A stretch of 64,000 nucleotides of DNA from Patescibacteria group bacterium (GCA_963169655.1 CAUJCM010000002.1:1426-65425); one strand, 5' to 3'; counted from the first letter of the stretch, positions 25,180 through 48,336 are shown. The notes: a model not told the origin generated them from the letters alone. Made by a program: numbers and translations.

Positions 25180-25285
25180 TTTATTTTTGAATTGCAATCA
25201 ATTTATTATAGCAGATTTGAAGAATATTTAAAAGGTAAATCAAGTGAGTCTTATTTAATATAAAATATTTAAAATAAATAAAAAT

Positions 25286-25314
25286 TTGCAATATTTCTAA
25301 AATATGGGTAAAAT
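25286..25314 (+). promoter_or_regulatory. Sigma70-type promoter of the pilin gene (TTGCAA-N17-TAAAAT)
   Basis: Hexamers at 25286-91 and 25309-14, 36 nt upstream of the ATG at 25350. Confidence 0.5.
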
Positions 25315-25349
25315 ATACTTAGCTTAATATAAATAACCAAAATAAAAAT

Positions 25350-29100: not shown

Positions 29101-32100
29101 CTGAAAATTATGTAAGTCATCAAGCATGTTTTGATTTAAAAGAAAAATCAGGTTATGACGCATTTATGATTGATACAAATATTTATCTCGAAGCAATATC
29201 TCAAACTAAATCTCCTGAACAAAAAGAAAAATATGAAATTATCAAACCTAATCCAGCTGATGCATACAAAAAACCAAAAGATATTATATTATTAGATTTT
29301 GGAGATAATGCTCCAAGCGAGTATGAAGTTACTCCTAATAATTACTTACCTATTAATCCTCTTGAAATACAAGCCATACAGCAAAATCCAAATTTTCAGG
29401 CATTCAATATAAATTTGGAGCAAGTATTAAGAGCCTACATGGGAGGGAATAGAGTAGATGATAATGGTAATGGTGTGACAGATGAATTAGCTGAGTCAAA
29501 TATTCAGTTTTTCCCAATTGATGCAAATGGTCAGCCTAACTGGTTTCAAGTTGGAGAACAACTTTTACAAAATACTAGAATTGACGAAGCAGCAACTGAT
29601 CCCAAACTCAAACCTTTAAGATTCTTAAATGGTATTATCCCAGGTACAAAAGAGGTTTATATTAGAGTTCAACCAATTTTTGGTAAAGAAATAAGTTCTT
29701 TAATTTTCCATAAAGAACCAACCATTGATACTTTAGAAGCTCAAATTTATCAACTTGAAAGAGATGATAATGGAGACTTTATAGTAGATAACACTTTAAG
29801 TGATAGGGAAAAAAGAAATATTGGACAATATAAAGTTGAAACTAAAGAAAATCCTAATGGAGATAAAGTTCCTCAAAAACATGGAGTTGCACAAAGTTTA
29901 CCAATTGATAGTCCTCGTTATGTTTCATTTAGAGATTCAAATGGTAATTATCAAAAAATTGTCTATCCAAACGCTTTTCAATCTAAAGATTCGAATGATT
30001 TTAAACAACAATTAAAAGATTTAGAGTTACAACTTGCAAATATTAAAGTAAATCCTAAATATGCAAATATTGGACCAAATTCAATAGATGGATATTTAAC
30101 AGGAGCTTTAGCTGATTTTATTAATAATGATGTTATGAATTCAGCTACTGGAGATATTAGCGTAATTTCTGAAAAGAAATTAAAAGATGCTTATGATTGG
30201 AAAAAAATGGATATTGATGAGAAACATCAATATGCAATATCTCATTATTTAGGACAGGCTTTTACTCCTTTTACACCAAATGTTGAAGCTAATAAGGGAT
30301 ATGAGGTTCTATATTTAAATTCAGCTGGAGATAGTCAAAAACTGTCAATGAAGTTTAATGCTGATATTCCTCCAATACAGCAAAAAACTATGATGGAAGA
30401 AGTAGATTGTACTGATCCACAATTTGCTAAATATGCAATTTGTAAAGATATGGTTAGTGATATGGATGGTTTAAATATTAATATTGAACAAAATAAACAA
30501 ATTAATAATCCAAATAGTGTTTTAAATGGGGGTAAAGGTTCTGGAGGAGGATTAACTCCTGTATTTATTACAGAATGGTTTGCTGCACTTGCAAAATGGG
30601 CGGATGAAACTGCAGAAATTATAAATGGAAAAGATTCATTTAATAGTTGTCCTGCGCCTATATATGATAAAAATGCTGGAACAGAACAAGTTGATTCTAA
30701 TTTGGATAATACAATTCTAGATTTAATGCCTGATTTAACTGGAGGTTCAAATACTACTTATTCAAGTAGCACTGATATTAAGGCAAATACTGTTAATTTA
30801 AAATTAGAAATAGAAAATAATAAGACACTTCTAAGGTCTAGTATGTCAGATCAAGCAAAAATTATAGTGACTGCCTTAAATAAAAATGGACAAATAAATC
30901 GTGCAGATAGTTTTAGCAATGTAAATTTAAATATTACAAATGCTATTGGAAATGGAGATATTATTGAAGTAGTAGGAGAGAAAAGTAAAACTTTAGCTGG
31001 AGGCCAAACTATGTTCATTATTGCTGGTGGAGATGACGAAGGTAGCGTATTAATTAATGCATCTTTAAACGAAGATAACAAAGTTAAGAGTAATAGTGTC
31101 AGTGTCAAAGTTACAAAAGAAGTTATTAAATTATTAGCATTTAGAAGGTTCCAAGCTTATCAATTTACACAAGGAAATGAAGATGGATATACAATTAATG
31201 ATGGTAATGAAGTAGTAGCTGATATTGATCCTAAAACTGGATATATCAATATTTTAAATAAAAATTATCAATTAAAAGTACTCACATCTAAAGCTGAAAA
31301 ACCACTGAGACTTGCAGTTGTTAAAAAAGAAGATCAAAAAGTAATTTCAATACTCTATTTTGTAACAAGTGGAGAAAAAGGAATAACCATAGATGGTCCA
31401 AATGTTGATTATCAAAAAGATTTTGAAAAATTAGAAGGAGTCCATATTAAAGATTTAACTGCAAAAGATAATTTAAGTTTACAAAGTATTGGAGATGAAG
31501 ATCCAAAATTAAAAGGTAATTTATTAATAGTTGATAGTACTGTTAAAGAAAATAAGGGGCGTGTTGGTTTAATAGATAAAAAAGGAAATTTATTTACTGA
31601 ATTAGATGTACAAATTAAAGAAGGAGATAAAAATGAACCTGTAATTTGGGAAATATTAGGTAACGATGGAAGGCCCGCAATGGAAATGTATATTGCAGCT
31701 AAATTTAAAGAAATTACTATCTTGCCTTATGAAGATATTAAAGAGTTCTTTGCAAAACTTTCAAATCAACTACTCAATACTCAGTTTGCTAAATTAATTA
31801 AAACTGCTCATGCACAAGAAAAAACAGAAAATGAAGAAAAGGCTGATACGAATGATATTAAGAAAAAAATTACTGATAGTGATGGAGATGGGTTAAATGA
31901 TTTAGAAGAATTAATTATTGGTATTGATCCATATAAATTAGATAGTAATGGTGATGGAATTAATGATTTAGATTCTTTATATCAAAATATTGATCCAATT
32001 AATAAACAAAAAACTCCTTTATTTGCTGATATTAATGAAAAAGATAATGGATTTAAAGAAATAGTAAAATTATTCCGTAGGGGAATTTTTGTGATGGATG

Positions 32101-35100
32101 CTAATAAATTTGTGAGACCAAAAGATAAAATTACTAGAGAAGAATTTGTTAAATTAGATTTAGGAGGTATTTGTGTTATTTGTGATAGGTTTTCTGAAAA
32201 AATAAAAAGTGCTGTATGGCAAGTATATTCAAATAATCCATTCCCTGATTTAGATATTGGAAATGATTATAAATATTGTATAGCTGAAGGAAGAAATAGA
32301 GGAATTATTTCTGGTTATAAAGCATATTCAAATGCTGGTTATTTTGTTCCAAAAGCAAATATTTCTCGAGCTGAAGCTACCAAAGTAATACTAGAAACTG
32401 CAAGACAGCAAATAGAGAGTTTCCCTGATTTTCAAGTAAATGAAAAATTAGCAGGAAAACCTTGGTACTACACTTATGTATTGACTGCACAAAAAGAAGG
32501 CCTATATCCAAAAGGTTATTTTCAATCTTTAGATTCACTTAAACCAGAACAATTTAAAGCTTATTTTGATAATCAAATCGCTTTATCAAACTTAGGACTT
32601 CCAGGTGGATCTTTAAATAGCCAATTTATAACTTGGCTTGAACAACCAATTACCAGAGTTGAGTTTGCAATTATGGTTTCTCAATTTACAGATAAATATG
32701 ATTGTTTGAGTACAGATAGTGATATGGATGGTATTCCAGATAATTTTGAAAAATATATTTATGGAACAAATCCAAATTTAGCTGACACTGATAAAGGTGG
32801 TGTTAATGATGGAATTGAAATTTTAAGAGGAACAAATCCTTTAGACCCAAGTGATGATCAAAAAATTGAAAAAGAAGAAATACCAGTAATTAATGAAAAT
32901 GATGATCCTGATGAGGATGGTTTAACTAATAAAGAAGAGGCTAAATATGATACCAATCCAATGGATCCAGATACTGATCATGGAGGGGTTAAAGATGGTA
33001 TAGAAGTATTACTTGGAATAGACCCTTTAAATCCTGAAGATGACAATGATTTTGGAAAAGGAAGTGGCCTTGAAAATCAAAATACTGATGGGGCTTATCT
33101 TTCTGGAATTAATATCGTGCCAAAAATTATTTATACAACTATTGATAATGATGATGAAAATCAAATCAATACTGAAGAAACAGATAGAATACCTGCAGAT
33201 GGAGAAAGTACTTTATATATTAGAGCTTCGATATATAGTAGTGATGGTAAAATAAAAGCTGATGATAATGAAAGTATTATTAACTTTAGCTTTAAAAACC
33301 CTTCCGATTTTGAAAATGCAACTTTAAATCCATTAAGTGTTAAAGTTAAAAATGGTGTTGCTGAAACTACTTTAACTGCAAAAAAGAAAACTGGTTTACC
33401 AATTGTTATTGCCGGTATTCAAAATGAAAATGTACCTAGTGATGAACAGGTTGTAGAAATTTATGCACTTGAACCAGCAATTATTTCACTAGATACAAAA
33501 ACTCCAATTATTCCTAGTGGAGGACAATCTAATGCAGAAATTAAAGCCGTTCTAAAAGATAGGAATGGAAATATTGCTAATAGTGAAAATTACCTAGTTA
33601 CTTTCGATATTGATGATGATACTAATGAAGATCAAGATAGAGCAAGTCTTGATTACTCAAAAGATGAAAATAAAGAAATTGATGGTGTCCAGCAAAGTAC
33701 TGTTACTGGAGAATTAAGTATTAAATTAAAATCGGGAATTAATCCTGAAACCGTTAAAGTTAAAGCTACTTACCAAGGAAATATAGGACTAACTGAACCT
33801 ACTGATGTAAATGATTTAAATGCAGAGTTACTTAATGAAGATGCACAAATCTTTAAACCTAAAGAATTAAATTCTGAAATTACAATTAATACTCGTGATG
33901 ACTTAAATATAGTAATTGAAAAAGATAAATCTGAGTTAAAAGCTAATAATGCTGATATTGCTAACTTAACAGTGAGAATAGCCGATAAAAATGGCAATGT
34001 TTTAAATGACTTCCAAGGATCTATTACGGCCCAATTATTAGACTCTCGTTTAGGAACTTTAATTGATGATAAGGGGCAAGAAAGTCAAAGTTTAATCAGA
34101 TTAAATCTAATCAATGGACTAGCAAAATTAAAAGTAAGAAGTTCATTTATTGCTGGAGACTTAAAGATATTAATGAGTACAGATGGTATTGCTTCTTCAA
34201 CTGTTCAATTAGAAACTTATGCTTATGCTCCATATAAAATTGAATTAGAAAGTGATGATATGGAAGTAAGTACTGGAAAAAATAATATCTATTATCTTAA
34301 AGCAAAAGTTTATGATGGAATGGGAAATTTTGTAAGTAGAGATAATAGTACTCAAATTGTATTTAATATAAATCCTGAAACTCAGAAATTTGGAAAATTA
34401 ATGTCTGCTAATAGTGTTAAAGTTAAAAATGGTGAGGCATTAGTCCAATTTATGCCAACAAATATTACTGGACCAATTAGATTTACTGCAAAAGCAAATA
34501 AGTTAATGGAAGGTAGTTTAGAGGTAAATTCTGTTTATCATCTTGAGGGTAAAGAATTAAGAGATATACAACCAAAAATTTTATATGCCAATCTTCTTGG
34601 TTCTGCATTTGGAGATGTTACTTCCAAAGATTATTTTGGGGGATGGTTTGTATTTAGTGGAAAAGTAGAAAGTGCTGCAACATTGATTACTGATCCTAAA
34701 CCAAAGATGAGATTAGTTGAAGTATTACCTACGGGAAAAATTAAATTAACTGGTCAAGGTGATTTAGAAATAAGATTAATTCCTACAAGTACAGATAATA
34801 GTCCTGTAAAACAGCAAGCATTTGATTATGATAATAATAAACAGGTAATGGAAGTAATGAGTATATTAAGTCCATTATCAAAAACTAAATTAATTTATTC
34901 AGAAAGTGATTTAGATTTGGTTGGAAATACAGTTAATGTTCTAAATAAAGTACCTGATAATGAAAATTATACTTGGGAGAATGATACCGAAAAAGTAGAT
35001 ATACTAAAAAATGGTAGCTTAATAGCCAGTATTAAAAAAGATGGAAGAATTAAACTATTTAATCCAAATACTAGTTTAACAGTTAATGAAAGCTCAAATG

Positions 35101-38100
35101 ATAGTAATATTAATTGGAATTTAAATGATTCAAGTTTAGTTATTGCAAATATTATTATATCTAGTGAAACACAGGAGAATGTTAAATTATTAGAAAATAA
35201 AGAACCTCTTCCTAATACTGTTGGAGTTTATATTAGAAAATTAGCTAATTTACCTAATCGTAGTTATGTAACTAACTTTAGTGGTAATTCAACATCTAAT
35301 AAGAGAGGTTATTATTATACAGACGATACAAAAGAGCTAAATAAGAACCAATCTCCTGGACTTTCTTATAATTCACTTGAATCTGCAGATAAAGAAGATG
35401 GAGTAGGACTTCGTGGAGATAATAAAAATGTTTTACTCTTTGCTGGAGGGAACACAGTTGGAGAATCTAATTTAAATTATGCTTCTGATGCAGGTGTTGT
35501 TTTAGGTGATCCTACAATTAGAATAAATAATAAAAAGGATCCTGATAGTATTGTTCAAGATGATGTTTTGTATAGTAATACTGGTTTTACAAAAGATCTT
35601 GGGGAAATGATTTATTCTGGAAATAAGCCAATCAGAGAAATTTTGCAAATTGATTATGATAATGATGGTGATAAAGATTTAATGATTACTTATTCAGATG
35701 GAGAAATTAGACTTTTAGAAAATATTAATAAAGGAAAGAGATTTGAAGATAAAGGAATATTCTTAAATTTCCCAAATGGGATTTTAAGTATTGTTGTAAC
35801 AGATATTAATAATGATGGTTGGGAAGATTTAATAGTAGCTACAAGTGATAGTTGTAAAGTTGGAGAAGTTTGTGTTGATGCATATTTAAACAATCATACT
35901 AATTTTGTTAGACATAATCTGAACCTCGAAGGATATGATAGTAAGAATAAAGTTTATGAGATGAAAGTAGCAGATATGAATCAAGACTCTTATCCTGACT
36001 TAATAATTTCAGATGATTTTGGTAATATTAAGATTTTCTATACAAAAAATGGAGAATTAAATAAAGGAGGTCAATTAATTGGAAATTTGGGAGTTAAAAT
36101 TAATCAAAATGATAATTTAAGGAATGAAGTATTTGTAAATTATGATGGAATGAGTGATAAACCTCTTGGATCAATAGATGATAAAAATTATCAAGAAATA
36201 GTTGTTAAAGGAAATACTGCATCAGAAGACCAAAAGTTACTATTTAAATCTCTATCAGTCGATAATATTTTGAAAGTTAGTAGTATTAAACAAGCAAAAG
36301 ATATTACTGAACCTTTCAATATGTTAGCTGCTGGTGATCAAGTTGAATACACTATTAAAATTGCCAATATTGGATTGAAAGAAATTAAAAGTCTAAAGAT
36401 CGCAGATTTAGCACCAGCTCCAATTGAATTAGATCAAGACTCAATTAAATGTTTAGATTGTAAAAATGAAATTAATTTAATTCCAACTGGTCAAAGCTTA
36501 AGACCATATATCATTACTGGAATTGATTTGCCAGCTAAATCAACTAGAACAATTACTTATAAAACAACAGTAAAAAAGTTACCTAGAGTTAAATTAATGG
36601 TAGGTCAAAATTTGAGTAAAGATTACCCAATACAAGATGGTTATCCAGATATAATGGCTACTCCAGAAAATAATCCAACTGGTAAAGCTGTTTATTATTA
36701 TTCAATTAGTAAAGATTCAATTACTGGACAAATAAAGTATGGACAATATACAACTCCAGATCCAAATGCAGGGGTAAAGCCTGGATATAATCAAATGACT
36801 GATCAAGATGGAAATAAGGTTGGTCCTGATTTGAGCTTATTTGAAAAGAAAAATGCAGATGGTATTCCAATTGCAGTTCAACATTATATGGATTATGGAA
36901 CTTTCCCTGGTATGTCTATGGGTGATGTTGTAGATGGTGGAGGAGTTTATACAGATTCAAATGGAGATACTATTTCTACATTACCAGGTGTGGGACCTGT
37001 TTATGATAAGTTAGGGTCAACATTAGATAAAGCTGCAGATAAAATTGAGTCTGCAATTAATGCTTTAACTTGTACAAGTGGTTGTATACCAATGCCAATA
37101 AACTTTGCATTTTTAGCTCCTGGTCCAATAAATGTGATGGGGATTCCTAGTGGTTTTGATCCAGGATTACCAATTTTTGCTTGGGGAGTCCCTAGTATTG
37201 TTCCTGTTTGGCCTCCTTCACCATTTCAAGCTTCTACTGGAGGAAGAATTTATGTATCCCCTACTTTGACAGGAAAAGTAGCAATGGCAATTTGTACTGG
37301 TCCTTACTTAGTTGGTTATGGGCCAGTACCTGGAAATTGTTATACTATTGTTTTACCTGTTAATCCTCTAGGTGAACTTTGTGATAAAATAGCTGATACT
37401 ATGTCAGGTATGTTGAATGGTGCTATTAGTATGGTCAATGATACTGCTGGAAATATTGGACTTTCTACTGATGGAAGTATGTCAACAATGCCTACAAATG
37501 ATGGAAGTAATTATACTGGTGGATTTGAAGCATCAAATAGTATGGGAAATTATCGAATGTCAGTTAGTGCTAAAACGAATATTAGAATACCAAGCTTTCC
37601 TTCTGTTTTAACAGATTGGTTAGACAATCAAACTCAAGAAATAATTAATAAAGTAACTGATTTACCTGATATACATATCTTATTACCTGATATGTTATCT
37701 CCATTTGTAGATGGATCAAAACAAGATAAATTAAATGATTTAACAGAAGGATCTTCAAAAGTAGGAAGTGAACCAATGAGTGCCAAAGGTATTAGAGGAG
37801 TTTTACAAACTATCAATGAAATTCCTTTGATTGCTATTGAGCCAAAAGAAGTAATTATCTTTATTCCTTCTTTAACGCCGGGTGAAATAGATAGGTTTGT
37901 AAATGATGCAAAACAATGGGTACAAGATGAAAAATCTGAATTAAATAGAGCTTTAAATGTATGGAAATGTGGACCTTTTAAAGAAACAGTAATAGGACCT
38001 GATGGACAAAAAGTACCTGGCTATATTGATGAAAACGGAAATACTGTTTATGGCGACAGGCCTTATGCCAAGATTTGTGACATTATTACGGTTGATATGA

Positions 38101-41100
38101 CTGAATTGATTCAGACGGTTGAAAAAAATATTGAAATAATTAATAGCTATAAAAATTTACCAAGACAGATTTTGGCTTGGAGAAATATGCTAACTAAATA
38201 TGTTACTCAAATAATTTGTTATATTGATATCATTTTAGATTTCTTTATTGGGAATATAGCAAAATGGCTAGATCAAATTTATGGATGGATTGATGCTTAT
38301 AATAATGCTTTAGAAATGATATCGAGTTGGCAGGTTTTGATAGATCTTGTAATTGAATATCAAACAAGTTGTGATACTTGTACTAGCTCAAGATTCTCAC
38401 TTCTAGAATTAGTACTAAGAGTATTTACATTTATTCCTAGCCCACCAATTATTCCTTTTCCAAAACTTCCTGATATTTATATTGACTTGTCACAAGTTCA
38501 AATGGGTATAAAAATACTTTGGCCTGATTTGAAATTTAGACCGTTAAAACTTGTTTTGCCAAGATTACCAAGGATAGCTTTACCGGACTTGCCTACTTTA
38601 AATTTTAGATTACCTAGTATTGGACTGCTTCCTGAAATTGCTATCTTCCCTGAATTACCAGACTTGCCACCATTAACATTACCTCAACTACCAAATCTTC
38701 CACCTCCACCAAAGATCCCTGCTTTCTCAGCATCTTTTAAAGCAACGATTAATATTTTACAAAAAATATTTAAGATACTTTGTTTAATTAAAAAAGGATT
38801 TATTCCAACTCCTGAAATGAATCTTAAAACTACAATTGAACATATGACTGAAAGAGGTTTAGATCCTCTACTTCCAATTGATTTAGGATTGGGCTTCCAA
38901 ATGCCAGCAATTAGTTATAACTATATGGATAGAATGGTTTTAACTGCTAAAGTAAATCTTCAAACTGATTTTTCTGCCATTTACGATATCATGAAATACT
39001 TTGCAGATAAAATTAATCTACTACCTACTAATTTTGTAAATAATGTAAATGATATAACAAAAACAATTAATAGAGGGTTGGACGATACAGTTAATTCTAT
39101 TAATCAAGGTTTAAATGATGCTGTTAAAGTTAATTTTAATTGGAATAAACCAAATCAATTTCAAATTCCAGAAATTGAAAGTGATGGTGCAGATATGAGA
39201 ACAGTTTTAGATAATAATCCAGATATCTTAAAAGAATTAAATCAGATCTCTCCAGAAATTGGTTCTTTAGTTTCAGCTTTAGCCAATTCTACAAAAGAAA
39301 TGGAAATTGATAGAATTAAATATCAAGAAATTATAAATAGAGATTTCCAAGATATTCATTTAGTAGCTTCAAGTATGACTATTAGCCCTACTGATCCTTT
39401 AATGAATAAATCTATTGAAGATTTAAGAAATTTTGATATTCAAAAAATAATGGCTGTTCTTGGTCCAGGATTTGAAGAGACAAAACAACTAGCGAGATTA
39501 AGAAGTAATTTGTTTGCATTTGTAGAAGAAAATCAAAAACTAGATGATTTGGCAAATACCAATGACTTAGAAAAATTTGCCACTTTGATGGCACAAGCCC
39601 CTTCTATTAGCGATGTATTAATTAAATCAGGTTATTCAAGTGAAGGAACAATGATAGCTGATGATAAAAATAAAAAGTTATTTGCGAAAACTCCAAGTAT
39701 TGATGACATTATTAGAAATTCAGGACTTCCAGCCAGCACTCAAAGTAAACCAATAACTAAAGGGATGTTTATTTATAATGAAAAAGAGAAGTTCAATGAA
39801 AAATTAATTGATTTTGAAGAAGAATTATCTCTCCCAACAACTATGAATTTTATTGATGTTGATCAAGATAAAGATACCGACTTAATTTATTCATTTGGAC
39901 CAAATATTTACCTCAAGAACAATTATAAATTTAATACTAATATTGGTAGTTTCTATGGAGGAATACCACAATATCATGAATTGATTGATTTTATGCCTGC
40001 TAGAGGGTCGGTGACAGGATTTAGCTCTACATTTAATGGTAATAAAAACTTAGAAGTTAAATGGAATAAAGCTAATGGAAGTGATATTTATGGTTATGAA
40101 ATGATAGTAGGTAAAAGGCTGGGAGGATCTTCCAATAAAGGTGTAACTAATGATGTAAATAGCTCTGGACTTCAGAAATTTGTTTATTTAAATAATAAAG
40201 AAATTACAGGCGGATTACTGACAAATTCCCTATTACAACCTGATAGCAATTCTTATAAATTCCCTATTTCTAAATTATATGAATTATCAGCTAATAATGT
40301 AAATGGAGAGATAAGATTTACAGGGCCAAAACAAGAAATTATTGTCGCAAATAAAGATAAAATAAAAGTGAAAGGTGGTATTCAAATTTATGCAAGTAAA
40401 GATAGTATTTTGAAGGTTTGGCTAAATGGAGAAAGCAAAGCTGATAAAAAATTACAAGCTAATGAATTGATTGAAATGCCAAGAAACTTTGGTGGAAATC
40501 TAGAAATCCAATTAAATAGTGGATCAATTACTTTAATTGATACAAATGAAATTGTTAAAAATCAAAAATTAGTTGATGGAAATAAGATAGATATAAAAAC
40601 TAAATATACTTCGATTAATAATGGAACCGCAATAATTAAATTACCTGGAGATTCTTATACAAGAGTAGATGCTGGTCAAAGTTTAGAAATAAATATTTTA
40701 GATAATCCAAAAAAGCCTCAAGTAAATTTAAACTTAGAGAATGGATTCTACTATGCAGTAATTCGATCGTTTAATAAAACAGGATTTAGAAGTTTAATCT
40801 CTCAAAGTATTTTACTATGGCCAAATATTTGTAATGACAGACAGCTACCAATGCCAGTGGCTGGACCTGATGAAAGAGAAGTTGCAATATTTAAAACTTT
40901 AGAAATTGATGCAAGTAAGTCATTTGATGCCTTTGGCAGTGTAGTTAGTTATTATATTGATACCGATTTAAAGGTTGATAGTGATGGAGATGGTGATACT
41001 ACAAATGATAAAAATTTAGGTAGAGATTTGGATCCTAATGTAGATAGTGATGGGGATGGAATACCTTATAATGATTTAGATGATCCAATTTTATATGTAG

Positions 41101-43646
41101 GACCTTATAAAGATTTAAATGATATGGAAATAATGTTAAATATTGTTGATGAGTCAGGTAATATTGGGCAACAAAAAATCACTATTCACGTTTATGTTCC
41201 TTCTATAACATTGGATGATAGCTCAAGTAATTTAGAAGCAGATCCTGATGGAAATAATGGAAAGAGTGTGTCAGGAAGTATTGATCCAAAAGAAAGTAAT
41301 ATTCCAATTGCTATTATTCGAGATAGGAATGGAATTAAAGAAATTATTATAACCAAAAAAGCTAATAGTAAAGGAAAATACTTAACTGACGAACAAGGTA
41401 AATTTGATATTTCAGACTTAAATTTAAATGATAAAGTAGTTATTAAAAATGCTAATGGCCAAGTAGTTGCAGAAATAGATCCAGAAACAGGAAGAATTAT
41501 TTTAATTGATCCAACTTATTCGATTGAGGTTCTACCTGCTCAAGAACCAATATTGCCAACTCGAGTTGTAGTAAGAAACCCTCAAAAAGTTATAGTAGCT
41601 ACATTATTTATTGTGTCAGATGCTAATACTGATGTGACAATTGATGATCAAAATGTAATTTATAATAGGAATACAGTTTTACTATTTAATGGAGTTCACT
41701 ACAAAGATATTCAGCAAGAAAGTTTAGGATTTGAATTAAAACAAATCCCTGCAGATAGTAATAAATTTGCTGGAGGTATTGAAATGATTGAAAATAATAC
41801 TTTAAAGAGGGTATTTGTGCTTGATTCAGGTGGTAATTTCTATGTTTATGATCCAAGAATACAATTAAAATTGAAATCAGTAGATAATTTGGAAGATCCA
41901 ATGATTATCCAAGTTTTATGGCAGAAGGAAGATGGTAATAAAGAAGTTATTGGTGAATTTTATGTATCATTTAGCTCTAAAAATCCATTACAAATATTAG
42001 ATGCTGAAAAATATAACGCTTTTGTTGAAAATCCTAATGTTTTTGGACCTGAATTTGATACGGATATGGATGGTATGCCAGATTTATGGGAGATGCAATA
42101 TGGACTTGATTATAATAATCCTTTAGATGCTAAAGAAGATCCAGACCAGGATGGTTTAACTAATTTAGAAGAATATTTAGCCGGAACTAACCCACTTTTA
42201 GCTGATAGTGATGGAGATGGATATTTAGATGGCTTTGAAGTAATAATGGGTAAGGATCCTTTAACAAAAGTAATCTCACCATTTGCCGATGTGGATCCTA
42301 ATAACCCTTATTATGAATCAATAATTAACTTCTATCAAAGAGGTATTCTTGCTGGAATTCCTGCTGGCAATCAAACTAACTTTGGATTTAAAGAACCTAT
42401 TAATCGTGCGGAATTTGCTAAAGTGATGTTAGACACTTTCTGTATTGTACCAAGGCCTGAAGCTTATCAAGCTCCTGGAGTATTTTATGATATTCCATAT
42501 AAGGAAGGTCAAAATCCTTGGTATTTTACAGCTACTAAAGAAGCTTATTTCCAAGGATTTATTACTGGTTATAGAGGTGAAATAGATATAAGAACTGGTC
42601 AAACACCTTTTGCTCCAAATGAAACCATTACAAAAGCTGAAGCAGTAAAAATTATTTTAGAAGCTTTAGAAAGAGAAAGAATTATTGATCTATCTAAAAT
42701 ACCTGAAACTGAACCTTACTATATTCCTTATATGGCTGCTGCCCAAAACTTAGAACCTTATTTAATTAAAGGTAAAACTTTAAAAAGTAACTTTATTTTA
42801 ACAAAGGAAGAGGCCTCTAGACCTGGAGAAGAAATTAATCGTGGGGAATTTATAAAATTAGCAGATAGAGTCTTAACTGCTTTAGATTGTTCTGTTATTG
42901 ATACAGACCTTGATGGAATGCCAGATTTCTGGGAACAAAAAAATGGATTAAATTATTTAGATCCTAGTGATGCAGATTTAGACCCAGATCAAGATGGTTT
43001 AACTAATTTACAAGAATATAAATTTGGAACTGATCCAAATAATGCTGATACAGACGGTGGTGGTATCAAAGATGGAATAGAAGTTTTAAAGAGGAGGACT
43101 AATCCTTTAGATCCTAAAGATGATTATCTAGATAGTGATGGGGATGGAATTTCAGATGATGAAGAAATTAATAAATATGGAACTGATCCATTTAATTCTG
43201 ATACCGATGGTGGTGGGGTAGATGATTATACTGAAATATTTATTAAAGGTACTAACCCATTAAATCCACTTGATGATTTAGATAGCGATAATGATGGATT
43301 ATCAAATTATGAAGAAATTAATATTTACCATACTGATCCATTTAATCCTGACACTGATGGTGGTGGAGTTAAAGATGGAGTAGAAGTTTATAGAAATTCT
43401 GATCCTTTAAATCCAAATGATGATTTAATAGATCCAAGAAAAGATTTGGGACCAGGAGTTTATGTGATACCTCCAACTTGTTCAACATGTCCTTGCGAAT
43501 CAGCAATTGACCATACAGCTGACCTGATTCCAGGAGATAAGATTTTAGGAATTATTTCAAATGATGATAATTCACAAATATTTAGCCAAAGTAATTTAAT
43601 AGAAATAAAAGAAATAAATAAGAGTAAACCAAAAGAAGTAAAATAG
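26109..43646 (+). CDS. Giant (5,845 aa) multidomain cell-surface protein with SLH, Asp-rich Ca-binding-type, Ig-like, FG-GAP-like, DUF11-like and PKD-like modules
   Basis: One uninterrupted ORF with GTG start and TAG stop. It has an N-terminal hydrophobic signal/anchor (FSLLITALFTFNLSAPSVLAF), and the domain motifs were read by eye (see sub-features). Confidence 0.85.
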   Translation: MQKIKNKITKLINLNFNKLANTRHFLLKFIKFLNKERSFSLLITALFTFNLSAPSVLAFWDNNKSLNSSPFKTQVAKAAESIFGKSGEILQQFSTKSEALKYQQNAKSKPQFDLIAILVDEEITKNLKDYDGLISSHNPNVPNKPEEAYRKLNEKTLMDRIERYAKDIQGINKVIDPVPYQKTVIIKVKRDEPTENIAMTLEKLYREGDSTLNENNKLRGIVIIGEVPLPVVNKNGNRFVSLFPYTDFDDPYYIFDQESGDFVVNVSSQDHNAEIWHGIIVPPVDGEEGNKLLAEYFDKNHLFKIGEKGYQDFNKEIFYSDLNKEFQLMGKEGLPAYYNYLKYWEDISYFRFNKNWLKLLYENSSFGGDEGDGIDNDGDGKIDEDPVNGYDDDGDGENGSPLFGLINGVDDDGDGVIDNDEEGVWGFCGPIPAKGPVKLQNCKVPGMPYKTDNFYNTKAGSYYKVADGINNNPEENALIDEGIDEDPGDAMKGIDNDRDGRIDEDGTDDNDADGDKKVDEDMPGDMNKDGCPGECGVDENLDSIDSDNDGWPDGYEKKYGSIKIGASQFGDLLSGNMPSFNTPTNPRDPFSFPTIAISFPGPIPTMFIPRFIPWPNSNEWVDNSISFDDDEDGKIDEDGLDDNDADGDGLFDEDPGDPLGNDKKNAGSQISEGLPDIKSKDVIMTYLKQYNELFDNFYADVNTWIAGTGRYEISAPKVDGSNKSDLRSFPFLISVKDEFTRLYLKAVNDAIEKRVDQYVQKLQYDIRLIKGSNLSGYIVLDDSLGIFPNQKIKFNDINFINFGYKNSVFANKVHTFLNDPIIKIFLKSALLGNPNKDNIKDLRNELLKDMKGSVTSTTPIYINGKPIDSITNIQQCSLYRGSEGIGEQSQMVYANTLNDVFGNLNKETPPSIPESWRSKSKNELLGTSGEDYKNGLFYWWNNSSDSPMVKWLKKQKALNESFAGCFYENSQNPDRCYVSLATRYIFSLGGAIQVKNIPENYVSHQACFDLKEKSGYDAFMIDTNIYLEAISQTKSPEQKEKYEIIKPNPADAYKKPKDIILLDFGDNAPSEYEVTPNNYLPINPLEIQAIQQNPNFQAFNINLEQVLRAYMGGNRVDDNGNGVTDELAESNIQFFPIDANGQPNWFQVGEQLLQNTRIDEAATDPKLKPLRFLNGIIPGTKEVYIRVQPIFGKEISSLIFHKEPTIDTLEAQIYQLERDDNGDFIVDNTLSDREKRNIGQYKVETKENPNGDKVPQKHGVAQSLPIDSPRYVSFRDSNGNYQKIVYPNAFQSKDSNDFKQQLKDLELQLANIKVNPKYANIGPNSIDGYLTGALADFINNDVMNSATGDISVISEKKLKDAYDWKKMDIDEKHQYAISHYLGQAFTPFTPNVEANKGYEVLYLNSAGDSQKLSMKFNADIPPIQQKTMMEEVDCTDPQFAKYAICKDMVSDMDGLNINIEQNKQINNPNSVLNGGKGSGGGLTPVFITEWFAALAKWADETAEIINGKDSFNSCPAPIYDKNAGTEQVDSNLDNTILDLMPDLTGGSNTTYSSSTDIKANTVNLKLEIENNKTLLRSSMSDQAKIIVTALNKNGQINRADSFSNVNLNITNAIGNGDIIEVVGEKSKTLAGGQTMFIIAGGDDEGSVLINASLNEDNKVKSNSVSVKVTKEVIKLLAFRRFQAYQFTQGNEDGYTINDGNEVVADIDPKTGYINILNKNYQLKVLTSKAEKPLRLAVVKKEDQKVISILYFVTSGEKGITIDGPNVDYQKDFEKLEGVHIKDLTAKDNLSLQSIGDEDPKLKGNLLIVDSTVKENKGRVGLIDKKGNLFTELDVQIKEGDKNEPVIWEILGNDGRPAMEMYIAAKFKEITILPYEDIKEFFAKLSNQLLNTQFAKLIKTAHAQEKTENEEKADTNDIKKKITDSDGDGLNDLEELIIGIDPYKLDSNGDGINDLDSLYQNIDPINKQKTPLFADINEKDNGFKEIVKLFRRGIFVMDANKFVRPKDKITREEFVKLDLGGICVICDRFSEKIKSAVWQVYSNNPFPDLDIGNDYKYCIAEGRNRGIISGYKAYSNAGYFVPKANISRAEATKVILETARQQIESFPDFQVNEKLAGKPWYYTYVLTAQKEGLYPKGYFQSLDSLKPEQFKAYFDNQIALSNLGLPGGSLNSQFITWLEQPITRVEFAIMVSQFTDKYDCLSTDSDMDGIPDNFEKYIYGTNPNLADTDKGGVNDGIEILRGTNPLDPSDDQKIEKEEIPVINENDDPDEDGLTNKEEAKYDTNPMDPDTDHGGVKDGIEVLLGIDPLNPEDDNDFGKGSGLENQNTDGAYLSGINIVPKIIYTTIDNDDENQINTEETDRIPADGESTLYIRASIYSSDGKIKADDNESIINFSFKNPSDFENATLNPLSVKVKNGVAETTLTAKKKTGLPIVIAGIQNENVPSDEQVVEIYALEPAIISLDTKTPIIPSGGQSNAEIKAVLKDRNGNIANSENYLVTFDIDDDTNEDQDRASLDYSKDENKEIDGVQQSTVTGELSIKLKSGINPETVKVKATYQGNIGLTEPTDVNDLNAELLNEDAQIFKPKELNSEITINTRDDLNIVIEKDKSELKANNADIANLTVRIADKNGNVLNDFQGSITAQLLDSRLGTLIDDKGQESQSLIRLNLINGLAKLKVRSSFIAGDLKILMSTDGIASSTVQLETYAYAPYKIELESDDMEVSTGKNNIYYLKAKVYDGMGNFVSRDNSTQIVFNINPETQKFGKLMSANSVKVKNGEALVQFMPTNITGPIRFTAKANKLMEGSLEVNSVYHLEGKELRDIQPKILYANLLGSAFGDVTSKDYFGGWFVFSGKVESAATLITDPKPKMRLVEVLPTGKIKLTGQGDLEIRLIPTSTDNSPVKQQAFDYDNNKQVMEVMSILSPLSKTKLIYSESDLDLVGNTVNVLNKVPDNENYTWENDTEKVDILKNGSLIASIKKDGRIKLFNPNTSLTVNESSNDSNINWNLNDSSLVIANIIISSETQENVKLLENKEPLPNTVGVYIRKLANLPNRSYVTNFSGNSTSNKRGYYYTDDTKELNKNQSPGLSYNSLESADKEDGVGLRGDNKNVLLFAGGNTVGESNLNYASDAGVVLGDPTIRINNKKDPDSIVQDDVLYSNTGFTKDLGEMIYSGNKPIREILQIDYDNDGDKDLMITYSDGEIRLLENINKGKRFEDKGIFLNFPNGILSIVVTDINNDGWEDLIVATSDSCKVGEVCVDAYLNNHTNFVRHNLNLEGYDSKNKVYEMKVADMNQDSYPDLIISDDFGNIKIFYTKNGELNKGGQLIGNLGVKINQNDNLRNEVFVNYDGMSDKPLGSIDDKNYQEIVVKGNTASEDQKLLFKSLSVDNILKVSSIKQAKDITEPFNMLAAGDQVEYTIKIANIGLKEIKSLKIADLAPAPIELDQDSIKCLDCKNEINLIPTGQSLRPYIITGIDLPAKSTRTITYKTTVKKLPRVKLMVGQNLSKDYPIQDGYPDIMATPENNPTGKAVYYYSISKDSITGQIKYGQYTTPDPNAGVKPGYNQMTDQDGNKVGPDLSLFEKKNADGIPIAVQHYMDYGTFPGMSMGDVVDGGGVYTDSNGDTISTLPGVGPVYDKLGSTLDKAADKIESAINALTCTSGCIPMPINFAFLAPGPINVMGIPSGFDPGLPIFAWGVPSIVPVWPPSPFQASTGGRIYVSPTLTGKVAMAICTGPYLVGYGPVPGNCYTIVLPVNPLGELCDKIADTMSGMLNGAISMVNDTAGNIGLSTDGSMSTMPTNDGSNYTGGFEASNSMGNYRMSVSAKTNIRIPSFPSVLTDWLDNQTQEIINKVTDLPDIHILLPDMLSPFVDGSKQDKLNDLTEGSSKVGSEPMSAKGIRGVLQTINEIPLIAIEPKEVIIFIPSLTPGEIDRFVNDAKQWVQDEKSELNRALNVWKCGPFKETVIGPDGQKVPGYIDENGNTVYGDRPYAKICDIITVDMTELIQTVEKNIEIINSYKNLPRQILAWRNMLTKYVTQIICYIDIILDFFIGNIAKWLDQIYGWIDAYNNALEMISSWQVLIDLVIEYQTSCDTCTSSRFSLLELVLRVFTFIPSPPIIPFPKLPDIYIDLSQVQMGIKILWPDLKFRPLKLVLPRLPRIALPDLPTLNFRLPSIGLLPEIAIFPELPDLPPLTLPQLPNLPPPPKIPAFSASFKATINILQKIFKILCLIKKGFIPTPEMNLKTTIEHMTERGLDPLLPIDLGLGFQMPAISYNYMDRMVLTAKVNLQTDFSAIYDIMKYFADKINLLPTNFVNNVNDITKTINRGLDDTVNSINQGLNDAVKVNFNWNKPNQFQIPEIESDGADMRTVLDNNPDILKELNQISPEIGSLVSALANSTKEMEIDRIKYQEIINRDFQDIHLVASSMTISPTDPLMNKSIEDLRNFDIQKIMAVLGPGFEETKQLARLRSNLFAFVEENQKLDDLANTNDLEKFATLMAQAPSISDVLIKSGYSSEGTMIADDKNKKLFAKTPSIDDIIRNSGLPASTQSKPITKGMFIYNEKEKFNEKLIDFEEELSLPTTMNFIDVDQDKDTDLIYSFGPNIYLKNNYKFNTNIGSFYGGIPQYHELIDFMPARGSVTGFSSTFNGNKNLEVKWNKANGSDIYGYEMIVGKRLGGSSNKGVTNDVNSSGLQKFVYLNNKEITGGLLTNSLLQPDSNSYKFPISKLYELSANNVNGEIRFTGPKQEIIVANKDKIKVKGGIQIYASKDSILKVWLNGESKADKKLQANELIEMPRNFGGNLEIQLNSGSITLIDTNEIVKNQKLVDGNKIDIKTKYTSINNGTAIIKLPGDSYTRVDAGQSLEINILDNPKKPQVNLNLENGFYYAVIRSFNKTGFRSLISQSILLWPNICNDRQLPMPVAGPDEREVAIFKTLEIDASKSFDAFGSVVSYYIDTDLKVDSDGDGDTTNDKNLGRDLDPNVDSDGDGIPYNDLDDPILYVGPYKDLNDMEIMLNIVDESGNIGQQKITIHVYVPSITLDDSSSNLEADPDGNNGKSVSGSIDPKESNIPIAIIRDRNGIKEIIITKKANSKGKYLTDEQGKFDISDLNLNDKVVIKNANGQVVAEIDPETGRIILIDPTYSIEVLPAQEPILPTRVVVRNPQKVIVATLFIVSDANTDVTIDDQNVIYNRNTVLLFNGVHYKDIQQESLGFELKQIPADSNKFAGGIEMIENNTLKRVFVLDSGGNFYVYDPRIQLKLKSVDNLEDPMIIQVLWQKEDGNKEVIGEFYVSFSSKNPLQILDAEKYNAFVENPNVFGPEFDTDMDGMPDLWEMQYGLDYNNPLDAKEDPDQDGLTNLEEYLAGTNPLLADSDGDGYLDGFEVIMGKDPLTKVISPFADVDPNNPYYESIINFYQRGILAGIPAGNQTNFGFKEPINRAEFAKVMLDTFCIVPRPEAYQAPGVFYDIPYKEGQNPWYFTATKEAYFQGFITGYRGEIDIRTGQTPFAPNETITKAEAVKIILEALERERIIDLSKIPETEPYYIPYMAAAQNLEPYLIKGKTLKSNFILTKEEASRPGEEINRGEFIKLADRVLTALDCSVIDTDLDGMPDFWEQKNGLNYLDPSDADLDPDQDGLTNLQEYKFGTDPNNADTDGGGIKDGIEVLKRRTNPLDPKDDYLDSDGDGISDDEEINKYGTDPFNSDTDGGGVDDYTEIFIKGTNPLNPLDDLDSDNDGLSNYEEINIYHTDPFNPDTDGGGVKDGVEVYRNSDPLNPNDDLIDPRKDLGPGVYVIPPTCSTCPCESAIDHTADLIPGDKILGIISNDDNSQIFSQSNLIEIKEINKSKPKEVK
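27208..28094 (+). repeat. Giant protein: first cluster of Asp-rich DxDxDGxxDxD repeats (thrombospondin type 3-like, Ca-binding type)
   Basis: Examples are DNDGDGKIDEDP, DDDGDGVIDNDE, DNDRDGRIDEDGTDDNDADGDKKVDED, DSDNDGWPDGYE and DDDEDGKIDEDGLDDNDADGDGLFDED. Confidence 0.6.
31875..33050 (+). other. Giant protein: TSP3-like repeats, then two SLH-like domains, then further TSP3-like repeats
   Basis: DSDGDGLNDLEE..DSNGDGINDLD comes first. SLH-like FADINEKDNGFKEIVKLFRRGIF...ITREEF and FPDLDIGNDYKYCIAEGRNRGIISGY...ISRAEA follow. The segment ends with DSDMDGIPDNFE...DTDKGGVNDGIE...DPDEDGLTNKEE...DTDHGGVKDGIE. Confidence 0.6.
33188..34535 (+). other. Giant protein: at least four tandem bacterial Ig-like (Big/invasin-type) domains
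   Basis: A recurrent pattern IPADGESTLYIRASIYSSDGK / IPSGGQSNAEIKAVLKDRNGN / LKANNADIANLTVRIADKNGN / YYLKAKVYDGMGN, each followed by a V.F stretch. Confidence 0.55.
35643..36585 (+). other. Giant protein: FG-GAP/VCBS-like repeats followed by a DUF11-like conserved repeat domain
   Basis: DYDNDGDKDLMITYSDGEIRLL, DINNDGWEDLIVATSD and DMNQDSYPDLIISDDFGNIKIF come first. GDQVEYTIKIANIGLKEIKSLKIADLAP...TRTITYKTTV follows. Confidence 0.5.
38555..38725 (+). repeat. Giant protein: proline-rich LPxLP tract inside the unassigned core
   Basis: The encoded sequence is LPRLPRIALPDLPTLNFRLPSIGLLPEIAIFPELPDLPPLTLPQLPNLPPPPKIP. Confidence 0.7.
40848..41195 (+). other. Giant protein: PKD-like domain with embedded Asp-rich loops
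   Basis: PVAGPDEREVAIFKTLEIDASKSFDAFGSVVSYYIDTD...ITIHVY resembles the PKD pattern AGPD...V.LDAS.S.D..G.I.SY.W. Confidence 0.5.
42054..43428 (+). other. Giant protein C-terminal block: TSP3-like repeats, then SLH-like domains (42282-42890), then an extended TSP3-like array
   Basis: DTDMDGMPDLWE..DPDQDGLTNLEE..DSDGDGYLDGFE comes first. SLH-like FADVDPNNPYYESIINFYQRGILAG...INRAEF and FYDIPYKEGQNPWYFTATKEAYFQGFITGY...ITKAEA follow. Five or more DTDGGG/DSDGDG units end the block, and the nucleotide-level repeats are visible. Confidence 0.65.
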
Positions 43647-43663
43647 GTATAATATAAATATCA

Positions 43664-44317
43664 ATGAAAAATAAAAAAAATAAAAATAGCTTTCAACAAC
43701 TAAGTATTACAATTTCTTTGATGATGCTGTTATTTATTGGAAATAGCCTTGGTAATATTGGTAATATTTCTTTGGCTCAAGAAGATACACAAAGTATTTC
43801 TACTGTTACTCCAGTGGAAGGAAATCAAATACAAATTAATAAAGAAACTCAAGTAGCTTGCCAAACTAAAATTGCTGAATGGGCGGAACCTGAATTTGAA
43901 AAATATAAAGTTTTTATGGAAAACCATTTTAGCAATAAAAGTAAGACTTCTTCTTTAATGGAAGAGGCTATGAATAGATACGAAAAATTTAAGTATGATA
44001 TTTCTGTAAAATATTCTGAATTTGTAACATTTCACATCAATCAAGCTGGTATATCAGGTGCAAATGTGGGAGTACAATTAGTAGGTTTATCTCAATGTGA
44101 ATCATTAGTTCGAGAATATATTCAAAATGCAAATAAACTATTGCAAATGAGAGCTATTACAACTGCAAAGATTAAAAAGGCTTCTGTTTTTGTTGAAAAA
44201 TATCAACAAATAAATTCAAAACTAAGATCTTTAAATGATGATTTTATTAAGATGGTTGTAAATATCTCTACTTTTGATCAAAAACTTCCTTGTTATCTAA
44301 AATCTTGTGTACAATAA
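43664..44317 (+). CDS. Secreted hypothetical protein 1 of 4 (217 aa, 4 Cys, ends ..LPCYLKSCVQ)
   Basis: Signal peptide ending SLAQ. The start lies 17 nt after the giant-gene stop, and there is no recognisable domain. Confidence 0.7.
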   Translation: MKNKKNKNSFQQLSITISLMMLLFIGNSLGNIGNISLAQEDTQSISTVTPVEGNQIQINKETQVACQTKIAEWAEPEFEKYKVFMENHFSNKSKTSSLMEEAMNRYEKFKYDISVKYSEFVTFHINQAGISGANVGVQLVGLSQCESLVREYIQNANKLLQMRAITTAKIKKASVFVEKYQQINSKLRSLNDDFIKMVVNISTFDQKLPCYLKSCVQ

Positions 44318-44318
44318 A

Positions 44319-45329
44319 ATGAAAAATAAAATTATTTATCTATCAGCTAGTTTACTCATAATTTTGAGTGGGGTTATGCTTTTTGGTTCTTATAGAGGGA
44401 TAGCTCAAAACAATGAAAATATTCCTCCAGTAAATTCTGCTAATTTTATTAATGCTTTTTGTTTTGATGGACAAATAGATCAAATGGATATTAAAGATTT
44501 ACAAGAGATGTATCTTGAGAAGACAAATGAATATTTTAATCAAAAAATTAAAGATGTTTTGCAGGACGAAAGAGATGAGGCTCCTACTCCAAATTTAGAT
44601 GAATATGACAAACTAGGTGGGAATCTCTGTACTAGTAGCGGAGATAGTGATTTAACTTGTAAATCTATAGCTGTTTGTAATCCAAACAAACAAGTTGATG
44701 AAAACCAAGATTATGCAAATCATCCTTATTGTGTTGGAGTTACTTTACTTGGCTTGCCTCCTGCTAAATTTGATCATTATAATTATCAAAGATTACAAGA
44801 AATCGAACAATTAAAATACAGTTATTTTTGTTATTATTCAGCTTTGAATTTAAAAAGAGATGCTATTTATGATGGGACTCCACAAGGAATTTTAGATAAA
44901 TGTAATACTGACAATCCATTTAAAAATGAAAAAGTATGTACCTTACAATCTCAAATCTCACAAGAAAATGATTCCGAGAAAAAAGAAGAATTGAAAGGAC
45001 AATTAAATCAAGAATTAACAAAGCAAATGGTTGGGTATGGATATATGGATGACGATACTCCTGATCCTGGAAATAGTATTATTAGCTATATGAATTACAC
45101 AGCTAATAGAATAAATTTTATAGACGATGAAATTGAGAAAGCTAAGCTTGCATTAGACCAAACTTTAGATGCTTATAGTCAATTAAAAACTTCATGGCAA
45201 TTACATATTAGATATATAGATATTTTTAATAATTTAGTAAAATACAGAGATCAATTGGTTAATATTCGACAACAGACTGATGTATTTCCAATGAAATTTG
45301 TAGATGCTACAACTACTAGATGTCTTTAA
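44319..45329 (+). CDS. Secreted hypothetical protein 2 of 4 (9 Cys, ends ..TTTRCL)
   Basis: ATG at 44319, in the TAAAATG junction, gives MKNKIIYLSASLLIILSG..GIAQ. It is preferred over the GTG at 44307. Confidence 0.7.
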   Translation: MKNKIIYLSASLLIILSGVMLFGSYRGIAQNNENIPPVNSANFINAFCFDGQIDQMDIKDLQEMYLEKTNEYFNQKIKDVLQDERDEAPTPNLDEYDKLGGNLCTSSGDSDLTCKSIAVCNPNKQVDENQDYANHPYCVGVTLLGLPPAKFDHYNYQRLQEIEQLKYSYFCYYSALNLKRDAIYDGTPQGILDKCNTDNPFKNEKVCTLQSQISQENDSEKKEELKGQLNQELTKQMVGYGYMDDDTPDPGNSIISYMNYTANRINFIDDEIEKAKLALDQTLDAYSQLKTSWQLHIRYIDIFNNLVKYRDQLVNIRQQTDVFPMKFVDATTTRCL

Positions 45330-47152: not shown

Positions 47153-48336
47153 TGAAACTAAATAATAATAAAATTTGGATTTTAAATTCTATTGTTCTTA
47201 CAATAACTTTTATGATTCTATTAAGCGGGTCAAATAATGATGTTAGTTATGCTCAGAAAAGTGTAGATAATAATTCAGGATCAGGAAAACAATTATTCTG
47301 TACTAGAGATTTTAGTAATTTTATAAATAACGGATTGGACTTTAATGGGGAAGGATTTATTGACTATTGGAATGATATTTTAGTTATTTATAATACAAAT
47401 TACTGCCAATATTCTGATATTGATAGTTTATTAAATAGAATTGATAAAGCCAGGAAACAAATAAGACAAGCCTTTTATGTTTGTGATACTGCTACAGCAA
47501 CTAGAGTAGCCAGTCAATATTACCAATTATCTGCAGAACTCTATTATTTAAGACATTTTGTAAATATAACTAATCCACCAAATCCAAAGGCTAGCGAGAA
47601 AGAAAAGGCATTAAATGTTATAAAAGATAGTAGTGTGCGCAAAAAATTTATGAATATGTTCGTTAATGATTTAAAATATTTTGATGCTGATACTGGAAAT
47701 AGAGTATTTGAACAATTAGAAGCAAAGTATGCAAGTAAAATTGAAGCTTATCAAAATTGTTCTGACCCTAACTTAGGAATGTTAACAGATAGAATAAATA
47801 ATATTAAAAATACGCTTAACCAACTCAAATTACTTGGTGATAGATTTCAAGCTAAAGTAGAAGCAAGAAATAATGCTCGTGATAAAAGATTAAAAGAAAA
47901 TCCAGGTATTTTATCAGCATTTTCCGCTCATAATGCAGCTGAATTTTTTAATAGCGTCTTTAATATAAGATTAAATAATGAACCAATTAAGGAAACTACT
48001 GTCTGGGAACAAATTTCTAACACTTATAAACAAAATAAACTTGGAGGTAATTTAACTGCTGAGAAAGATAATATTGAAGTGCCAAGAGGTATTAAATTTA
48101 ATGATATTGCTGATGATTTATCTTTAATAAAAAGGAGAGATATGGATGTGGATATGGATATTAAGTTTGTGACAAGCTATGACTTAAAATACAGGCAAGT
48201 TGGAGGGATGGGACTAGATAAAGCTAAAGTAAATTTAGATGATTTGAAAGTAATTCTGACTGATACTTTCCAACCTCTTTTAGAAATTAAAGGATGTACG
48301 GCTAATATTGTTGGAAAACAGTGTGGAGAACGCTAA
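47152..48336 (+). CDS. Secreted hypothetical protein 4 of 4 (6 Cys, ends ..GCTANIVGKQCGER)
   Basis: ATG at 47152, in a TAATG overlap, gives MKLNNNKIWILNSIVLTITFMILLSG..SYAQ. It is preferred over the TTG at 47143. Confidence 0.7.
   Translation: MKLNNNKIWILNSIVLTITFMILLSGSNNDVSYAQKSVDNNSGSGKQLFCTRDFSNFINNGLDFNGEGFIDYWNDILVIYNTNYCQYSDIDSLLNRIDKARKQIRQAFYVCDTATATRVASQYYQLSAELYYLRHFVNITNPPNPKASEKEKALNVIKDSSVRKKFMNMFVNDLKYFDADTGNRVFEQLEAKYASKIEAYQNCSDPNLGMLTDRINNIKNTLNQLKLLGDRFQAKVEARNNARDKRLKENPGILSAFSAHNAAEFFNSVFNIRLNNEPIKETTVWEQISNTYKQNKLGGNLTAEKDNIEVPRGIKFNDIADDLSLIKRRDMDVDMDIKFVTSYDLKYRQVGGMGLDKAKVNLDDLKVILTDTFQPLLEIKGCTANIVGKQCGER

Follow-up and report, generated by a model that had tools for sequence, protein, structure and literature searches.

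Introduction

Giant surface proteins with DUF11, integrin and fibronectin domains are candidate host-attachment factors of Vampirococcus lugosii and Strigamonas (PMC8080830, PMC13059738), and a survey of proteins longer than 5,000 amino acids (aa) found the Peregrinibacteria to be enriched in them, theirs being uncharacterised (PMC11573180). For host attachment, the literature on the few enriched or cultured predators names only "giant surface proteins" with generic adhesion domains. Here we describe a gene for a protein of this kind, located in a 64,000-nucleotide stretch from a Patescibacteria group bacterium (GCA_963169655.1 CAUJCM010000002.1:1426-65425, hereafter the window), and a module of about 900 aa within it that has no known fold, is the best conserved part of the giant gene and is near-universal and single-copy in the class, and which offers a precise target for structural and localisation work. 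The protein resembles the giant surface proteins described from the candidate phyla radiation (CPR) in its size, its signal sequence, its DUF11, integrin/FG-GAP and fibronectin-type domains and the host-attachment role proposed for them, and the module is likewise found in TGA-recoded lineages of the same class. However, the papers, which we compare by the domains they describe, list recognisable adhesion domains only and not the 900-aa core, and our search of the literature on giant proteins of these bacteria found no description of this core. The module is a new domain family, but the proteins that carry it are of a known kind, the giant adhesin-like surface proteins of CPR bacteria.

Other wall-attached or host-engaging proteins share single traits with it. 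In oral streptococci, the stalk of antigen I/II (SpaP/SspB) is formed by the pairing of an alpha-helical with a polyproline-II region. The module likewise has a proline tract with a three-residue proline spacing beside a very long helix, in a protein that would be attached to the wall. However, antigen I/II carries long tandem Ala-rich and Pro-rich repeats, whereas the tract of the module is a unique sequence with invariant positions and flanking cysteines. Indeed, no antigen I/II family is among the Pfam matches of the window protein and 10 homologues, and no fold match identifies the module as such a stalk.

With the SLH-anchored S-layer and S-layer-associated proteins, the giant protein shares SLH repeats and a genome that encodes a CsaB-type pyruvyl transferase, which imply non-covalent wall anchoring; it differs in that its 5,845-aa chain has two separate SLH regions, which lie on either side of the module. 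It showed no similarity to known S-layer crystallisation domains. The likeness to class I viral fusion proteins and helical pore-formers is superficial: a hydrophobic Gly-rich segment, long helices and an amphipathic helix. Class I fusion proteins are marked by a characteristic fold and by a fusion peptide that adjoins a cleavage site, together with two heptad-repeat regions and an anchor in the membrane at the C terminus. In contrast, the module has neither sequence nor fold similarity to fusion proteins or pore-formers, no membrane anchor is predicted in it, and its hydrophobic segment is modelled as folded beta structure.

Results

A conserved module without a known family

A sequence-only reading of the window had proposed an unassigned core of about 1,400 aa at positions 36590-40840, which correspond to aa 3494-4911 of a giant open reading frame. 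All the elements that it quoted lie in this frame where it had placed them, and a real module without a known family is present, but this module covers only about 900 aa. The window's own sequence matches no Pfam or NCBIfam family between the DUF11-like match (aa 3406-3488) and about aa 4911. With homologues and structure models added, the interval is made of a DUF11-like tail with a linker, the novel module, and ordinary beta modules:

26109..43646, + strand: giant open reading frame, 5,845 aa in a single reading frame.
36588..36980, + strand, aa 3494-3624: remainder of the DUF11-like beta domain, the match to which ends at aa 3488, then a variable, gap-rich linker.
36981..39713, + strand, aa 3625-4535: novel conserved module, with no matching known family or fold.
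39714..40841, + strand, aa 4536-4911: ordinary beta modules, namely one FG-GAP-like repeat, then a fibronectin type III (Fn3) domain split by a FecR-like insert.

No confident match to the module was obtained by any route, known adhesin stalks included. Pfam, NCBIfam and PHROGs returned nothing on it in the window protein and in 10 diverse homologues, and sequence and profile searches of the PDB with it gave only coiled-coil-type noise on its helical arm. The best PDB profile match, a spike HR1 mimic (E=0.007), falls in this poorly conserved arm, and we regard it as compositional. A class I fusion protein was rejected as an identity for the module, there being no anchor, no fold match and only this HR1-mimic match in a variable arm. 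Again, Foldseek searches with the 988-aa model described below found nothing below E=4 in the PDB or E=0.6 in BFVD.

The module is nevertheless strongly conserved. A word-indexed search with aa 3600-4500 returned 302 giant homologues with 30-60% identity across about 95% of the query region, nearly all of them 3.7-6.2 thousand aa long. With HMMER, aa 3600-4799 matched 440 clusters (50% identity; E<=0.001) among 1.84 billion cluster representatives; nearly all of the 150 listed of these 440 are giant proteins or shorter fragment-like sequences, and we saw no other protein architecture carrying the module among them. The giant proteins that contain it are 3-6 thousand aa long, and it was found in no other setting. 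A scan of species-representative genomes found it in 212 species, almost all of which go under a generic label or under the names Peregrini-, Peri- or Gracilibacteria. It is present in 181 of the 251 sampled genomes of the class (about 72%), whose members are ultra-small and host-dependent, in lineages of the Peregrini-, Peri-, Gracili- and Absconditabacteria type, and in none of about 190 sampled genomes from other classes of the phylum. Every listed genome of the same order is positive, mostly with one copy, and the window's own genome also has a single copy. The module is for these bacteria a candidate sequence marker of the class.

In many of the positive genomes, from several families of the class, the homologues have in-frame TGA as their only stop, in some cases at conserved Gly columns. 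The giant gene family therefore spans both genetic codes, including lineages that read TGA as sense, which fits a code with TGA as Gly.

In a BLAST-based conservation profile over 118 homologues, the most conserved 100-aa segment of the 5,845 aa is aa 4101-4200 (0.56), which takes in the PKLPD hairpin and runs into the Leu-Pro ladder described below, and the Ig, propeller and Fn3 domains that flank the module vary more than it does. The Cys pair and the LPxLP tract, singled out in the sequence-only reading, follow this pattern: the tract lies in that best conserved segment, and Cys 3655, 3729, 3744, 3758, 4088, 4091, 4225 and 4908 are invariant in all 120 homologues aligned. Cys 3659 is found in 117 of these and Cys 4037 in 102, while Cys 3954 and Cys 3990 are kept jointly in 104 and lost jointly in 13; this covariation points to an intrachain disulfide bridging a variable insert. 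The other invariant positions are mainly Pro, Gly and Trp, plus a K-x-P-D...D-x-S motif.

On both sides of the module the interval is of a more familiar kind. Upstream, the repeats that would mark a DUF11/TIGR01451 protein were not found: the sole PF01345 match of the giant protein (aa 3406-3488) scores 19-21 bits against a curated cut-off of 24.6, and none lies within aa 3625-4535. The linker that follows is poorly conserved, with 41% gaps in columns 3560-3610. Downstream, AlphaFold2 (AF2) run on a 55-sequence alignment of aa 4536-4911 predicts an all-beta structure (predicted local distance difference test, pLDDT, 85; predicted template-modelling score, pTM, 0.74). The best PDB matches of this model in Foldseek are Fn3 arrays (E about 9e-5), with global TM-scores that are low since several domains are involved. 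Pfam run on each of the 55 homologues found FG-GAP_3 in 10, FecR in 6 (best 4.8e-6) and fn3 in 3. Through these homologues and the structure model, we assign aa 4536-4911 as predicted Fn3, FG-GAP and FecR-like domains.

Five related loci lack the FecR-like beta insert in the Fn3 domain, of about 200 aa (aa 4665-4870, window 40101-40718), which marks it as an inserted domain that is dispensable.

Sequence features and predicted architecture of the module

The composition of the module is unusual. Its Leu-Pro tract of 60 aa holds 17 Pro and 11 of the giant protein's 39 "LP" dipeptides; the 106 aa from 3655 to 3760 comprise 14 Gly, 18 Pro and 11 aromatic residues and only 6 charged ones; and 11 of the 36 Cys of the giant protein lie in aa 3625-4535. 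These oddities of the Leu-Pro tract, the Gly/Pro/aromatic stretch and the Cys content exceed chance.

A model of aa 3625-4612 (988 aa) was built with AF2 from 74 species-level sequences. Combined with the conservation, it divides the module as follows:

36981..37388, + strand, aa 3625-3760: a helix, then a Gly/Pro/aromatic-rich beta domain (AF2 strands, Cys conservation).
37389..38096, + strand, aa 3761-3996: a low-confidence loop, then an alpha/beta part (AF2, conservation).
38097..38381, + strand, aa 3997-4091: a helix, predicted to span about 90 residues, with an invariant S-C-D-x-C (Cys 4088, 4091) at its end (AF2).
38394..38549, + strand, aa 4096-4147: a short hydrophobic helix (FSLLELVLRVFTF), then an invariant P-K-x-P-D...D-x-S....G.....P-D beta hairpin.
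38550..38729, + strand, aa 4148-4207: the Leu-Pro ladder, non-repetitive, with three invariant P-x-x-P pairs.
38730..39074, + strand, aa 4208-4322: a Lys-striped amphipathic helix (ILQKIFKILCLIKKG; Cys 4225 invariant), then conserved helices and a strand.
39075..39713, + strand, aa 4323-4535: a helical arm, poorly conserved and partly disordered, with a coiled-coil-like composition.

The beta domain includes CTSGCIPMP... at aa 3655 (window 37071) and AICTGPYLVGYGPVPGNCYTIVLP at aa 3727-3750 and has the consensus C-x-x-G-C-x-P-x-P-x-N-x-AFLAPG. The Gly/Pro hydrophobic stretch of the sequence-only reading is modelled with confidence as beta strands of a folded domain, at a pLDDT of 85-90, and not as a loose segment. 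Conserved motifs of the alpha/beta part are NIRIPGFPS..TDW..Q..E...K..DLPD.Y and IPLI.IE. The "YVTQIICY..." segment, within YVTQIICYIDIILDFFIGNIAKWL at aa 4031-4054 (38199-38270), is placed inside the long helix (aa 3997-4089, residues 373-465 of the model), which ends at CDTC (aa 4088-4091, 38370-38381); FSLLELVLRVFTFIPSPPIIPF lies at aa 4096-4117. Further on, aa 4122-4147 form a beta hairpin and aa 4208-4247 form helices in the model. A fourth invariant P-x-x-P pair sits in the PKLPD motif, immediately upstream of the ladder. For the ladder no regular secondary structure is predicted, yet its pLDDT is 68-84, and it is probably of the polyproline-II type. Disorder is predicted for the loop at aa 3767-3826 and for about aa 4315-4367, both poorly conserved, and aa 4323-4535 are modelled as helices with disordered gaps, again with low conservation. 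As a whole, the model and the conserved cysteines show the module as a predicted folded, cysteine-stabilised, extracellular unit.

The module is predicted to lack a membrane anchor

The hydrophobic helices of the module raise the question of a membrane segment. The Kyte-Doolittle maximum falls at aa 4208-4228 in 63 of the 120 homologues and at aa 4096-4112 in 29. The helix at aa 4208-4229 is conserved and very hydrophobic (19-residue Kyte-Doolittle average up to 2.5 in homologues), and the Lys residues of aa 4208-4228 (ILQKIFKILCLIKKG) are all on one face; the hydrophobic helix at aa 4096-4112 extends over about 12 residues and runs into prolines. As a transmembrane segment we would count about 19-23 aa whose apparent free energy of insertion is close to, or lower than, 0 to +1 kcal/mol. 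This energy was summed over 19 aa on the Hessa 2005 scale, with values not weighted by position, and is a rough estimate. In none of the 120 homologues does the minimum over the core drop below +1 kcal/mol, and its median is +5.4 kcal/mol; in the window protein only the N-terminal signal sequence lies below +3 kcal/mol.

A transmembrane reading of aa 4208-4228 and 4096-4112 was consequently rejected: both segments hold 2-5 charges or prolines and fail the insertion-energy test. Moreover, SLH and Ig-type domains flank the module on both sides, which makes a single membrane crossing topologically implausible. We conclude that the module carries no conserved translocon-type membrane segment, and on these sequence-derived estimates it would not be a membrane anchor. 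The "possibly membrane-active helices" of the sequence-only reading fare poorly in the same test, with insertion energies above +1 kcal/mol in 120 of 120 homologues, and AlphaFold renders them as the helix of about 90 residues and the short helix. An activity at the membrane surface after secretion is possible.

The giant protein, its probable wall anchoring and its possible downstream partners

The window has a G+C content of about 30% and belongs to a genome of 1.02 Mb that is 98.7% complete; the giant gene makes up 1.7% of this 1-Mb genome. The protein, which would be Sec-secreted, has a hydrophobic signal-type segment at its N terminus (aa 41-59), and Pfam and NCBIfam recognise in it TSP3-type calcium-binding repeats, the Ig-like domains Big_1, Invasin_D3 and GH2_C5, and an FG-GAP propeller. 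SLH repeats score 26.5 and 29.3 bits (cut-off 20.8) at about aa 1972 and 5391 with Pfam, and were found again in a search of the genome, which also encodes a CsaB-type pyruvyl transferase (PF04230, E=1.4e-40). The presence of SLH repeats together with this transferase makes SLH-mediated wall anchoring plausible. A signal sequence, SLH repeats above the cut-off and the pyruvyl transferase being all present, we classify the giant protein as a predicted SLH-anchored surface protein that would bind the wall.

In the same genome, 43 SLH repeat matches are spread over about 17 proteins, an unusually heavy use of SLH wall anchoring for 1.02 Mb.

Downstream of the giant gene lie genes that are possible partners of it:

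43664..48336, + strand: four genes in the same orientation, downstream of the giant gene, each encoding a secreted protein that has a Cys close to its C terminus.

The synteny of these four genes with the giant gene is kept in most related loci. The third partner is without its C-terminal Cys in about 15 loci, two loci also lack that of the second, and these losses track no core cysteine.

Role of the module

Our preference, a tentative one, is to see the module as a disulfide-stabilised structural or assembly hub between the two SLH anchors. If the wall holds the chain at both SLH triplets, about aa 1970-2180 and 5340-5560, the intervening 3,100 aa would stand out as a loop whose outer part includes the module. 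It could there serve as a rigid hub, a disulfide-locked junction or stalk that holds the adhesive arms, with the Leu-Pro ladder perhaps lying along the long helix in the manner of antigen I/II. The hub may also dock the giant protein to itself or to the four Cys-tailed partners. A variable host-recognition tip, a membrane anchor and a spacer are each less likely than such a hub. Were the module merely a structural junction, it would still add a new domain family, notable for the unusual, invariant ladder of Leu and Pro.

Several observations weigh against this proposal. We deduce a hub or stalk solely from where the module sits and how well it is conserved, and high conservation would also fit the binding of a universal host feature; the ranking of aa 4101-4200 as the most conserved segment is itself mildly biased, the homologues having been fetched with the core as probe. 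The AF2 model of the module is of moderate quality (mean pLDDT 67, pTM 0.54). A mean-field coevolution analysis of 261 sequences gave no usable contacts, its top pairs being gap or indel artefacts (aa 4161-4184 and 4250), and the ladder is only possibly packed on the helix. As for the docking, a profile of the core has no homology to the other open reading frames of the window, the four downstream partners included, and the presence of Cys 4037 shows no significant association with the tail Cys of the third partner (2x2 table 28/10/4/5).

The sequence-only reading had placed host-membrane contact or polymerisation in this core as possible novel activities, and possible they are for the module. 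We think it unlikely that the module is a host-membrane-engaging device, in which the beta domain and the Lys-striped helix would contact or perturb the host membrane while the long helix and the arm would form an extending rod, in loose analogy with fusion or pore-forming proteins and in the service of attachment or feeding in an episymbiotic or predatory lifestyle. The idea draws on the hydrophobicity of the beta domain and its few charges (6 in 106 aa), on the conserved, very hydrophobic helix at aa 4208-4229 with its one-sided Lys stripe, and on the position of the module towards the outside of the loop. High conservation would suit a universal target such as lipid, and relatives of this class include contact-dependent predators with giant surface proteins proposed for host attachment (PMC8080830, PMC13059738). 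However, the summed insertion energies identify no inserting helix, and the hydrophobic stretch is a confidently modelled beta domain with invariant Cys and no free loop. Foldseek found no structural similarity to fusion or pore-forming proteins in the PDB and BFVD, and the HR1-mimic match looks compositional and is confined to the poorly conserved arm. A shade more doubtful is the reading in which the module is a conserved device of episymbiotic or predatory Gracilibacteria-class bacteria that engages the host envelope: from the outer part of the loop between the two wall anchors, the hydrophobic, Cys-locked beta domain and the Lys-striped helix would bind or breach the host membrane, with the long helix and the Leu-Pro ladder as a rigid or extending rod; if true, it would represent a new class of bacterial contact-dependent membrane-active machinery.

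An equally improbable role as the host-membrane device is that of a covalent polymerisation node, in which free conserved Cys would bond with other copies of the protein or with the four partners to form a lattice or fibre. The conserved Cys are odd in number in each half of the module, since the beta domain has 5 and the helical half has 3 that never vary beside 1 that does, and the Cys-tailed partner genes are syntenic across most loci; but in the absence of a disulfide map an odd number says little, the partner's tail Cys comes and goes independently of Cys 4037, as noted above, and the remaining core Cys, being invariant, offer no covariation signal. An enzyme or self-processing module seems to us very unlikely. 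Such a module would be a hydrolase of the host envelope, or would cleave itself at the conserved Asp-Pro of a G-x-D-P-G-x-P motif. Very high conservation, the invariant polar residues K4119, D4122, D4126, S4128 and D4089, and a conserved D-P-G motif in a protein rich in calcium repeats would agree with it. Nevertheless, the module has no conserved His, most of its invariant positions are Pro, Cys, Gly or Trp, and no catalytic family or fold was matched in Pfam, NCBIfam, PDB profile or Foldseek searches. Finally, a disordered low-complexity spacer between folded adhesin domains, to which the sequence-only reading had given some thought, is scarcely credible. The module is indeed proline-rich, and two segments of low conservation, aa 3767-3826 and about 4315-4367, come out as disordered in the model, but the proline tract is the best conserved part of the giant protein, is non-repetitive and has invariant positions and a pLDDT of 68-84, and eight Cys never vary. 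The invariance of Cys, Pro, Gly and Trp positions across the homologues excludes a spacer of this kind.

Other parts of the giant protein and upstream genes

The pilus genes of the window form a separate observation. A type IV pilus operon (PilN/O-like, PilB, PilC) and a pilin, at 15827-25847, lie directly upstream of the giant gene and are co-oriented with it. The same arrangement, operon and pilin directly upstream and co-oriented, is found in 3 of 3 genomes of the same order, and in one other family these genes are about 20 kb away. Six further genomes, four of them TGA-recoded, have no pilus operon or pilin within about 30 kb upstream of the giant gene. Given these six genomes, we rejected pilus linkage as a defining feature, as it is a trait of the order and is not universal.

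The sequence-only reading had placed any novel activity of the giant protein in the core, but the core is not the sole place where one could sit, since the N-terminal 1,900 aa (aa 1-1900, window 26109-31800) are likewise without a Pfam match except for one TSP3 repeat. Within this family-less N-terminal third, aa 201-300 are the second most conserved 100-aa segment of the giant protein (0.53). At the other end, the C-terminal domain carries a C-x-x-C-P-C motif (aa 5791-5796, window 43479-43496), which is also present in all 8 homologues read full-length and may be another disulfide or metal site.

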